A stretch of 64,000 nt of DNA from a virus (IMGVR_UViG_3300028048_000004:6958-70957); one strand, 5' to 3'; shown: positions 3,298-32,040, numbered from the stretch's first letter. The notes: generated from the letters alone by a model not told the origin. A program made the numbers and translations.

Positions 3298-3747
3298 TTA
3301 CTTTCTGTTTCCAAATTTATCAATGAACTGGTTACCATTAAAACCTCGTAACTTTGCACTAGCACTACACTTTTGACAAAAATCTTTCGACATTTTTCTT
3401 CCCTTATTTACTGGTCCATGTTCCTTAACGTAATTTGCTAATCGCATATTACCTTTACTATGCAAACTTGAATGTTCACATCTTGATAATATCTGTAAAT
3501 TATTCAGTGCATTATTATGTGTATTTTCATCTATATGATGTACAATACAACCACGTGTGTAATCCTGCAAATACTTCATAGCAACAACTGTATGAACACC
3601 AAAAATATGTCTTTTATGATTAGTGTCAAATAATAATACTTGTAAATATTTATTAGACTTAAATGGTTTAATTTCTACTCCATTTTTATACACTCTACCA
3701 AGTTCATCAACATCATAATTTGGAAACATTTCTTGAAAGTTATACAT
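3298..3747 (-). CDS. Free-standing HNH homing endonuclease
   Basis: VHTVVAMKYL...VHHIDENTHNNALNNLQILSRCEHSSLH (HNH_3 type) with basic C-terminal tail. Confidence 0.85.
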   Translation of the reverse strand: MYNFQEMFPNYDVDELGRVYKNGVEIKPFKSNKYLQVLLFDTNHKRHIFGVHTVVAMKYLQDYTRGCIVHHIDENTHNNALNNLQILSRCEHSSLHSKGNMRLANYVKEHGPVNKGRKMSKDFCQKCSASAKLRGFNGNQFIDKFGNRK

Positions 3748-3934: not shown

Positions 3935-4570
3935 AATTGTGGCAGAACCATATTCTTTCAAGCACGTTCACTTATTGGCTACTTTGCAATTCCAAACTAA
4001 CTTACTTACTGGAATATCCAATTAGTATATTTTCTACCTAATCCAACGGAGCGACCAACTCTTTGTATATAGTAGGAAACGGTAACAGTTTCAATCCAGT
4101 CTTTGATTAGGTGGGGGTATTCAAGCGTTCAATCTCCTTTTTCATTGCATACTCCAAACTTTCAGCCACCACAAACGGGAGCAGAAGGATTCGAACCTTC
4201 GTTTTCTGATTGATGGTTACCAGACTGTTGCCTTAGACATACTCTAACAAGCACATCACTCTTGTACCCTTTGTCTACACTTACACTCCCATATTGACCG
4301 CCCCTGTCTCGCAAACTCAGGCGGTCATTTCTGACTAAATAATCAGAAAAACTGGCGGCGGTCTTGGCCTTCGACCGCACTTTAATGCTCATTAACAAAC
4401 CAGTCTAAACTGCATGATATATCTACCATGACTAACTTCCAATCAGGTTTTCGTATACTCATATTGGAGTCTTTGCATACTAAGGTCTGCCTTTTCGTTA
4501 ATAACTCATCTGAAATTATTAACTACGCATATCTGCACTATGATAATAGAGGTATTACCAGACCACTCCT
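3935..4570 (-). ncRNA. Candidate large structured ncRNA within the tRNA island
   Basis: Many nested helices and no credible CDS; see findings. Confidence 0.55.
4176..4290 (-). ncRNA. 115-nt tRNA-like domain with an expanded D-arm region
   Basis: Acceptor GGGAGTG/TGCTCCC; canonical T-arm GAAGG-TTCGAAT-CCTTC; no 7-nt anticodon loop. Confidence 0.55.
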
Positions 4571-29869: not shown

Positions 29870-30952
29870 TCAACCAACAAGAAAATCAAGTAAATCTGCT
29901 TTGTTTACTGCAATCTTACCATCTACAAGTGCATCTGCCATCATTCCTTTTTTCTCTACAAGCTGATTAATACGTTCATCAATCGTATCTTTGCAAACAA
30001 GGGTGTAAATAGTAACATTCTCTTTGGTTCCTACACGGTGGCATCTATCCTCTGCCTGTTCTTTGTTTGCACGGTTCCACGGTTCATCCATGAAGATTTC
30101 AATTGTACCTGCGGTTAACGTAAGACCTGTACCCATAGCACCGATTGTACCTACAATTACATTACAAGTTTTATTTTTCTGGAATGTTTCTACCATTACC
30201 TGTCTTTCTGTATCATTCGTTTGTCCAGTAATTACAGCGGGGGAATATTTAATCAGTCTTGCACAAACGGCATCCGTCATCTGTGTCCAGTTGCTAAAGA
30301 TAACAACCTTCTTTCCATTTTCTACAGCTTCCTCAACAAGTTCTTCCATTCTATCAAGTTTAGCGGACTCTTTAATCGTAGAAGAAAGAATACCTGTATA
30401 ACCAGTTGCTTGACGCATACGAATAAGTTCAGCAAGAGGATTATTCGCCATCTTAATCTGGTCGATATTCATCTTAATCTCCGCTGTAACTTCATCATAA
30501 ATCTGCTTCTGCTTCGGAGTCATTTCAACGTATTCTGTAATATGTGTTTTCTCCGGAAGATCAAGAACATCATTCTTTAATCTTCTAAGCATGATTTCAT
30601 TAAGCTGTGCCTGAAGTTCATCGAGATACTTATATCCTACAACTTCATATCCACCGTATCCACCGAACATACCATAATGTTTCTTGAATGCGTAGAATGC
30701 GTGTTTTTCATATCCCAACCACTTCAGAATGATATACAGGTCAAACGGGTTATTCATAAGTGGTGTACCAGTCATTGCAATTCTACATTCTGGCTGAACT
30801 TTAAGAATACCTTTACCCTGCTGAGAAGTCGGGTTTTTACAGTTATGTGCAAGTATTCCTTCTGCGTAGTAATTATGGTTATCTTCAACTTCTATATCAT
30901 AGGTAAGAAATGATATATCCTCTACTGTTCGTTTAGATATGAGTTTAGCCAT
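29870..30952 (-). CDS. SNF2 helicase C-terminal half preceded by a 37-aa IntC
   Basis: MAKLISKR...YDIEVEDNHNYYAEGILAHN|CKNP; then TGTPLMN, LRRLK, QAEDRCHRVG. Confidence 0.9.
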   Translation of the reverse strand: MAKLISKRTVEDISFLTYDIEVEDNHNYYAEGILAHNCKNPTSQQGKGILKVQPECRIAMTGTPLMNNPFDLYIILKWLGYEKHAFYAFKKHYGMFGGYGGYEVVGYKYLDELQAQLNEIMLRRLKNDVLDLPEKTHITEYVEMTPKQKQIYDEVTAEIKMNIDQIKMANNPLAELIRMRQATGYTGILSSTIKESAKLDRMEELVEEAVENGKKVVIFSNWTQMTDAVCARLIKYSPAVITGQTNDTERQVMVETFQKNKTCNVIVGTIGAMGTGLTLTAGTIEIFMDEPWNRANKEQAEDRCHRVGTKENVTIYTLVCKDTIDERINQLVEKKGMMADALVDGKIAVNKADLLDFLVG

Positions 30953-31988
30953 TTTCTAAATTCTCCTTTATCAATCTGTTCATGTGTACATCATCATAAC
31001 TTGTTAAATCTTCGGCTCTAACCCAGCCACGATTTTTGGTAAAGAATTTGTGTCCTTTTGTACACTTTATAGTTTTAATTCCATCATCAGTTTCAAACTG
31101 TAACTCTAACAACTGTTCTGCTACGATATTTTCGTGCCAATCTACAACTCGTTTCCACTCATTTTTTCCAGTAGTTTCATTATAAGATAATACTGAACAA
31201 CTAAGTTGATCTTTAACGATGTCACCAATTTTCAATGTACCGATGTCTGTTGTTATCAATGTATCATAATCAAAACACTTATGTATTTCATCAATCGCCA
31301 CAAGTCCAATCGTACCATCCTTACAAAGTTTCTGAAGTTCTTTTACAACTTCCTCATTTCTAAGTGTTTCAACATTAGTAATAAGGAAATACGGATTAAT
31401 GTTGTCAATGTTCTGTAAGTCTTCTACTCTATCTGCTACTGAACCAACTGTGAGTTTTCCGGCTTTATATCTCTGTCCTAAAATCCATACTTCCTCATTA
31501 CTATGGGTATGGATTTCATTTAACCAGTTCCATTTCAGTCCGTTGACTCCACAAACAATCAGACAGTGTTTATAACCCTTCTGCAATTTTTTTGCAACTG
31601 CAATATCAATGACCTGTTTTGTTTTGCCCAGACCCTGCTCATCACCGAGCAACCATCTATCATTGTTAAGCCCATATTCAAACCCTTCGATCTGATGCTG
31701 AAACGGAGTCGTTTTAAATTGAAATCCGGCCGGCATTTCCAATTTTTTCTTCTCTTCAAATGCTTTCCAGTTACCATAAATTTTAAAATTCTGCTGTGGA
31801 AGTGCATCGATGAGAGGTTTGAAATACTTAAACGGAAGTTCCCACTCTTTCTTTTCCTTATCCCAAAATCTAGACGGAAACTCTCTTATGGCTTTTATTA
31901 TAGCTTCCTCATACGGAAAGGTCACATACAGTGACCAATCCCCGTTACATTTTTTAGCTATATCAACTCGAATATCAATCATGTGCAT
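30945..31988 (-). CDS. SNF2 helicase N-terminal half fused to a 110-aa IntN
   Basis: GDEQGLGKT (Walker A); IDEIHK|CFDYDTLITT (intein block A); CTKGHKFFT (block B TxxH). Confidence 0.9.
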   Translation of the reverse strand: MHMIDIRVDIAKKCNGDWSLYVTFPYEEAIIKAIREFPSRFWDKEKKEWELPFKYFKPLIDALPQQNFKIYGNWKAFEEKKKLEMPAGFQFKTTPFQHQIEGFEYGLNNDRWLLGDEQGLGKTKQVIDIAVAKKLQKGYKHCLIVCGVNGLKWNWLNEIHTHSNEEVWILGQRYKAGKLTVGSVADRVEDLQNIDNINPYFLITNVETLRNEEVVKELQKLCKDGTIGLVAIDEIHKCFDYDTLITTDIGTLKIGDIVKDQLSCSVLSYNETTGKNEWKRVVDWHENIVAEQLLELQFETDDGIKTIKCTKGHKFFTKNRGWVRAEDLTSYDDVHMNRLIKENLENG

Positions 31989-32011: not shown

Positions 32012-32040
32012 AGTATACTACATGATTAATCTATTGTCAA
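32012..32040 (-). promoter_or_regulatory. Sigma70-type promoter for the helicase
   Basis: TTGACA-17-TATACT. Confidence 0.75.

Follow-up and report, generated by a model that had tools for sequence, protein, structure and literature searches.

The locus consists of two overlapping minus-strand open reading frames, ORF1 (31988..30945, 347 aa) and ORF2 (30952..29870, 360 aa), which contain the two parts of an SNF2 helicase, each adjoining one part of an intein. All coordinates refer to the window, that is, the whole stretch of viral DNA that was analyzed (64,000 nt). The host record is 70,957 bp long, has direct terminal repeats and is rated 100% complete; the coding density of this genome is approximately 91%, with no sign of widespread frameshifts. 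ORF1/ORF2 is the only SNF2 gene in the genome, and the intein in motif II is its only intein. The features of the locus, in the direction of transcription, are as follows.

32082-32057, minus strand: terminator-like hairpin, directly preceding the promoter-like site of ORF1
32012..32040, minus strand: promoter-like site (TTGACA, 17 nt, TATACT; 11/12) just upstream of ORF1, candidate single promoter for both halves
31278..31988, minus strand: N-extein, with a HARP-like N-terminus and SNF2 ATPase lobe 1 from motif I (GLGKT) to motif II (DEIHK)
30990..31277, minus strand: native N-intein, 96 residues from Cys1 to SYDD, with the block A Cys and the block B TxxH
30948..30989, minus strand: foreign tail of ORF1, 14 residues read from the 3' end of an endonuclease gene in another frame, with the stop codon 30947-30945 next to it
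30985..30988, minus strand: deletion junction, the 4-nt microhomology TACA
30922..30987, minus strand: remnant of the endonuclease gene (Vsr-like/DUF559), its last 21 codons and stop in the third frame, the downstream part overlapping the C-intein start
30963..30968, minus strand: ribosome-binding site of ORF2, AAGGAG, inside the ORF1 tail, kept in the related loci L001-L005 and L014
30842..30952, minus strand: C-intein, 37 residues, with blocks F and G and the terminal HN
29870..30841, minus strand: C-extein, with Cys+1 at 30841-30839, the rest of SNF2 lobe 1, Helicase_C and the stop codon
29837-29865, minus strand: sigma-70-like promoter, 12/12 match, directly after the ORF2 stop

The two ORFs overlap by 8 nt (ORF2 ATG at 30952-30950, ORF1 TAA at 30947-30945), and the AAGGAG hexamer (30968-30963) is situated 10 nt upstream of the ORF2 ATG. 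These coordinates agree with the first-pass annotation of the locus, which had placed the start of ORF2 8 nt inside ORF1, behind its own AAGGAG, and had described a C-intein of 37 aa ending in HN and followed by Cys+1. Since the ORF1 frame stops 5 nt beyond the ORF2 start, the halves are adjacent and overlapping and, judging from this arrangement, probably translationally coupled. The start of ORF1 is ambiguous: the longest ORF begins at 31988 (MHM...), and ATG 31982 is the start in relatives and in the database gene call P0001. Because the relatives and P0001 begin with MI(D/N/T)I, the true start is probably ATG 31982, two codons in.

The domain composition of the two ORFs is complementary. 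The Pfam profile SNF2-rel_dom (PF00176, cut-off 24.9) is matched by both, with 29.9 bits in ORF1 and 60.2 bits in ORF2, and the matches abut at 137/134 (profile positions 1-137 in ORF1 and 134-260 in ORF2). Helicase_C (PF00271) scores 60.8 bits in ORF2, the cut-off being 23.5, and the Walker A motif of ORF1 is uninterrupted (GLGKT). The Intein_splicing profile is divided as well, positions 10-94 being found at the end of ORF1 and positions 135-155 at the start of ORF2, each of these matches alone lying below the Pfam cut-off.

The presence of a promoter-like site before ORF1, with the next one following only after ORF2, is consistent with one transcript for both halves, the sites being consensus matches only, which are no more numerous in this region than expected from shuffled sequence. 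The hairpin and the promoter-like sites bracket both helicase halves, which could form a transcription unit of their own.

Conservation of the split and of the splicing residues

A protein search with ORF1 retrieved two populations of proteins, namely intein-free ones (557-575 aa) and N-halves (333-354 aa). The intein-free proteins are 72-86% identical to ORF1, over the N-extein only, and their DEIHK-CKNP sequence is continuous; as this is exactly the predicted spliced junction, they can be regarded as intein-free alleles. In particular, the identity of one of them (P0026) is 86% in the N-extein and 85% in the C-extein, the latter similarity extending from residue 226 of P0026 (the Cys) to the end. 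The junction is uninterrupted in 62 intein-free proteins and in loci L009-L025, so the spliced sequence that had been proposed for this helicase is the one that these alleles carry.

The N-halves are 54-86% identical to ORF1 over 96% of its length and comprise the N-extein and the N-intein, followed by a stop. Among the retrieved proteins that could be parsed, 49 N-halves stop approximately 100 residues after Cys1; the N-intein length among relatives is 100-120 aa, and the split point shifts by several residues. The same split at the same site is observed in about 55 database clusters and 10 loci, and at the DNA level the two-gene layout was found in nine IMG/VR loci and in one metagenome contig (L032). 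As relatives with as little as 54% identity have the split too, it is very unlikely to stem from a sequencing frameshift. A naturally split intein rebuilding an SNF2 helicase at motif II, as claimed in the first-pass annotation, is thus borne out by the ORFs, the splicing residues and the conservation of the split in diverged relatives. A search for longer proteins yielded no contiguous form of the motif II intein (weak evidence). IMG/VR scans with the distant N-halves P0097 and P0041 identified no further split SNF2 loci, and a megablast of the locus against the phage collection produced no match.

Cys1 (31277-31275) stands directly after DEIHK, block B is T-K-G-H, and ORF2 residues 36-38 are H-N-C. 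In an alignment of eight sequences, Cys1 and the Thr and His of block B are invariant (8/8), and so are the Asp and His of block F and the terminal HN (all within ORF2 residues 19-37), as well as the Cys in position 38. By its Cys1, TxxH, terminal HN and Cys+1, the intein is of the class 1 HINT type, as far as sequence motifs define it.

The C-intein is 100% identical to the C-intein of L001, the relative most often used for comparison below. The dN/dS values of the intein halves in comparisons with L001-L003 are 0.03-0.10 at dS 0.5-1.7 (0.03-0.08 for the N-intein); these values span whole lineages, in which the period after the endonuclease loss described below is not separable. The nucleotide identity is 83-91% in the intein, compared with 64-70% in the exteins, and this higher similarity of the intein fits recent horizontal movement among helicase alleles.

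The predicted complex of the two intein pieces received a score of 0.65, with 0.00 for the best of three controls, although similar complexes have already been solved and the prediction may show likeness only. The score mark was reached by 58 of the 80 solved complexes and by two of the 110 mismatched pairs, with shallow alignments as input. The model runs had a contact agreement of at least 90% and a partner pLDDT of at least 68, and the tail of ORF1 past approximately residue 104 of the chain was modeled without confident contacts.

The endonuclease gene of the relatives and its remnant in the window

In the nine IMG/VR loci, 680-810 nt separate the stop of the N-intein from the start of the C-intein, and the gap contains one same-strand ORF of 215-279 aa in every relative examined (contig L032 ends approximately 125 nt past the N-intein stop, and the gap ORF begins there). 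The gap ORFs match DUF559 (Vsr-like nuclease fold) with E-values from 4e-11 to 6e-10 and have one or two zinc-finger-like motifs in their N-terminal part. In relatives, the last approximately 30 nt of the endonuclease gene overlap the C-intein start, the overlap in L001 being 31 nt. A metagenome scan yielded four loci, both close ones having the endonuclease gene.

A hairpin of 14-20 bp (z from -6.0 to -7.4) is located in the leader of 40-70 nt before the endonuclease gene in three of the four loci folded (L001:5019-5060, L002:5015-5052 and L004:1600-1643), and in the fourth one, L006, no strong hairpin precedes this gene. Given the Vsr-like endonuclease, the leader hairpin and the 3' overlap, the layout of the relatives is recognizable as the "fractured gene" arrangement of Dassa et al. 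2009. The L001 hairpin has a TG-n-TATAAT-like (extended -10) sequence in or beside its loop, resembling the promoter-in-hairpin control of other phage homing-endonuclease genes.

In the window, no full endonuclease gene is present between the halves, and only its last 21 codons remain. Side by side with L001-L005 and L014, the window DNA tracks the N-intein of the relatives up to two Asp codons (30995-30990) and, after TACA (30988-30985), continues as the 3' end of their endonuclease gene. [quoted passage not shown] Compared to L001, approximately 650 bp are missing, namely, the final four codons of the N-intein together with its stop, the leader with the hairpin, and approximately 200 endonuclease codons; the length of the scar is 67 bases.

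The remnant is the sole match to the relatives' endonuclease in the entire genome (residues 197-219 of 219, 83% identity), and no DUF559 domain was found elsewhere in it. The frame of the remnant extends to 30924-30922, which is 28 nt beyond the ORF2 ATG, so that the 3' overlap with the C-intein gene is kept, and no footprint of the endonuclease 5' end or of the leader hairpin survives in the window.

The deletion also changes the end of ORF1. An N-intein of 110 aa had been annotated here, and its Cys1 at 31275-31277 and block B (TKGH) are in place, but only the first 96 residues are native, the last 14 being foreign. This 14-residue tail is unique among the 49 split N-halves, of which the 19 closest end with IQEF or IQEV. 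In the closest relatives, IQEF comes directly after the same DD; the closest N-halves (P0002-P0012, 72-86% identical) have native IQEF ends and are hence without the deletion junction of the window. A gapped DNA pattern (55-85 nt from the N-intein end to the C-intein start) identified no other endonuclease-less loci in IMG/VR. The window is the only endonuclease-less copy found, and it could be a recent variant not yet tested by selection, coming from one metagenome assembly.

With the endonuclease gene occupying the gap in the relatives and its 3' end still present in the window, the comparison identifies the endonuclease-free state as a secondary loss, and the window as a derivative of the fractured-gene arrangement, not a full member. 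The initial description of the intein as endonuclease-free is accurate in that no endonuclease gene lies between the halves, but it has to be amended to a secondary absence, with the last 21 codons still there and the gene present in relatives.

Proposed history of the locus and alternative explanations

We consider it very probable that the split intein rejoins the SNF2 halves and that the locus is a deletion derivative of an endonuclease-bearing fractured gene. The ancestor would have been a fractured gene, with the two halves of a split intein flanking a free-standing gene for a Vsr-like homing endonuclease. A deletion of approximately 650 bp between the two TACA microhomologies would have removed the last four N-intein codons with the stop, the hairpin leader and most of the endonuclease gene. 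The ORF1 frame would then run through the remnant and stop 5 nt after the ORF2 start, and the kept 3' end of the endonuclease gene would still provide the ribosome-binding site and the start codon of the C-intein gene. The division of the helicase gene would persist, as the downstream start is still furnished by the 3' end of the lost element.

The helicase would accordingly be made as two polypeptides, one comprising the N-lobe, the 96-residue N-intein and the 14-residue junk tail, and the other one comprising the 37-residue C-intein and the remainder of the protein. From the observed anatomy, conservation, deletion scar and intact catalytic residues, we infer that the two intein parts assemble to a single HINT fold and undergo class-1 protein trans-splicing via Cys1, TxxH, the terminal Asn and Cys+1, which would free a helicase of approximately 560 aa with motif II intact (DEIHK-CKNP). 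The split intein is probably active.

As a tentative extension, which we would sooner doubt than accept, the loss of the endonuclease might have "domesticated" the element. With one promoter and an overlapping stop and start, the halves would be made in step; the deletion may have erased the re-entry site of the endonuclease gene, fixing trans-splicing as an obligatory part of helicase maturation; and a compact split intein with Cys1 and Cys+1, belonging to the NrdJ-1 group, would be a by-product, which might splice fast and be orthogonal to the ones now employed.

The two intein parts could alternatively be a contiguous (cis) mini-intein in a single ORF, an error of one base in sequencing or assembly near 30953-30985 having disrupted its frame. 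The two frames are indeed one base apart, the ORF2 start is immediately preceded by a short A-run, and an in-frame fusion would make a plausible mini-intein of approximately 147 aa. Such an error is nevertheless highly improbable, as the AAGGAG and ATG of the C-intein are inherited from relatives where the C-half is a separate gene behind the endonuclease gene, the DNA between the junction and the ATG is the endonuclease 3' end with the single substitution and no indel relative to the four loci listed above, and the genome, given its coding density, shows no widespread frameshifts. Programmed frameshifting that fuses the ORFs was rejected, since a slippery site is lacking and the C-half is expressed from a gene of its own in the relatives. 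It is even harder to believe that the window represents the ancestral state, a split intein that never had an endonuclease, and that the gene was a later acquisition of the relatives. This order of events has in its favor only the parsimony of "absence first" and the lack of an endonuclease 5' or hairpin footprint in the window, while the window contains 21 in-frame codons and the stop of the conserved endonuclease C-terminus at 83% protein identity, and the ORF1 tail is a stretch of the endonuclease gene read out of frame. Moreover, a never-invaded intein would be contiguous, and in the model of Dassa et al. the downstream start codon is brought by the invading element (PMC2677866).

Alternatively, the split intein might no longer splice, so that the halves only dock and form a non-covalent helicase, as proposed for Aeh1 NrdA, or the helicase is broken. 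The four native C-terminal residues of the N-intein are lost, with the junk tail taking their place beside the split site, and an assembly of fractured phage genes that does not involve splicing is documented (PMC3045599). On the other hand, none of the splicing residues is lost (Cys1, TxxH, Asp and His of block F, terminal HN, Cys+1), and this is the only SNF2 helicase of a complete genome. The N-intein is not conserved at its very C-terminus, since the split point varies by several residues in the family (N-inteins of 100-120 aa). Loss of splicing is therefore unlikely, and trans-splicing by the intein of a fractured gene that lost its endonuclease remains the preferred explanation.

Relation to known inteins and fractured genes

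Fractured genes were described by Dassa, London, Stoddard, Schueler-Furman and Pietrokovski (2009, NAR 37:2560; PMC2677866), and the hosts named there are gp41, IMPDH, DnaE, NrdA, NrdJ, ligase and terminase, with no SNF2 (PMC2677866). As in those genes, a phage DNA-metabolism gene is broken here at a conserved motif, with a split intein at a canonical site, on one strand and in one locus, and the relatives of the window have the Vsr-like free-standing endonuclease, the upstream hairpin and the 3' overlap with the C-intein gene. The host gene here, which codes for an SNF2 helicase divided at motif II, differs from those named, and it comes from IMG/VR viral contigs, in contrast to the ocean GOS data. 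The AAGGAG and ATG of ORF2 are inherited from the endonuclease cassette, as the model of Dassa et al. predicts (PMC2677866).

The locus had also been contrasted with known split inteins from fractured genes by the lack of an intervening endonuclease; this lack stands, but it is not without precedent, as one endonuclease-less split-intein locus, gp41-7, was already described in Dassa et al. 2009 (PMC2677866). Like gp41-7, the window is without endonuclease. While gp41-7 kept the upstream hairpin, the window lost the hairpin and kept the endonuclease 3' end, which yields base-level deletion end-points and the 8-nt overlap. In step III of the published model, the endonuclease is lost before the halves uncouple genomically, on the way towards unlinked halves like those of DnaE (PMC2677866). 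The locus is the expected intermediate towards fully separated halves such as those of cyanobacterial DnaE, and it provides base-level evidence for an evolutionary step, the loss of a homing-endonuclease gene from a fractured gene, that had been proposed from a single example. For a specialist it is not surprising, being a clean illustration of this proposed step and a tool candidate.

What is new is the host gene and the site (SNF2 motif II), for which an earlier listing is possible; the layout and the loss step have been known since 2009. A full-text search for "split intein" with "SNF2" retrieved incidental co-mentions only, subscription journals and intein databases being outside this search. 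Protein-ligation methods are built on natural split inteins, and any further pair with a distant sequence is a potential orthogonal tool; the SNF2 split intein is small and canonical in its chemistry, and it has dozens of natural variants.

The best solved match for the N-intein of the window is the NrdJ-1 split intein (8ubs/9omb; 8ubs E-value 5e-13, residues 7-96), the next ones being DnaX and DnaE inteins. Like the window intein, NrdJ-1 is split into about 100 + 37 residues and has the same class-1 residues; gp41-1, IMPDH-1 and Npu/Ssp DnaE are wider kin. NrdJ-1 differs in its host protein, the whole-sequence similarity is modest, and in the window the +1 Cys is followed by K-N. The best solved matches of the C-intein are weak, with E-values of about 4e-4 (the intein within the 6y75 chain and the Spl DnaX mini-intein). 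Split-intein C-halves starting with MAKL, as in the window, were also observed on RNR-like exteins in two IMG/VR loci (L045:~4170-4300 and L046:~3330-3460), and the intein lineage of the window thus appears to sit in different host genes.

In the cultured Salmonella phage S16 (HQ331142 104626-107352), the SF2 helicase UvsW is encoded in two genes with an ORF between them (gp114/gp114.1/gp115). The S16 N-half ends in an N-intein 46% identical to that of the window, and it is followed by an overlapping ORF of 291 aa and then by the C-half. In contrast to the window, the helicase is from another family and the intervening ORF is still there; the record annotates helicase and hypothetical proteins. 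The same match was obtained with S16-like Salmonella phages and with Proteus phage PM2.

Contiguous SNF2/HepA inteins are known, and 15 HepA inteins were counted in Novikova et al. 2016 (PMC4760082). These cis-splicing inteins resemble that of the window in the host protein family and in their location in conserved ATPase motifs. The Snf2 intein of Deinococcus radiodurans is of class 3 and contiguous, whereas that of the window is of class 1 and split. A further contiguous intein was observed in two N-halves of 687 aa (P0121 and P0122), which also hold the same motif II split intein. This second intein is situated in Walker A (approximately residues 124-480, GLGK / A...THN / TKQV) and contains a LAGLIDADG domain (PF14528); its Ala start and block F Cys suggest class 3.
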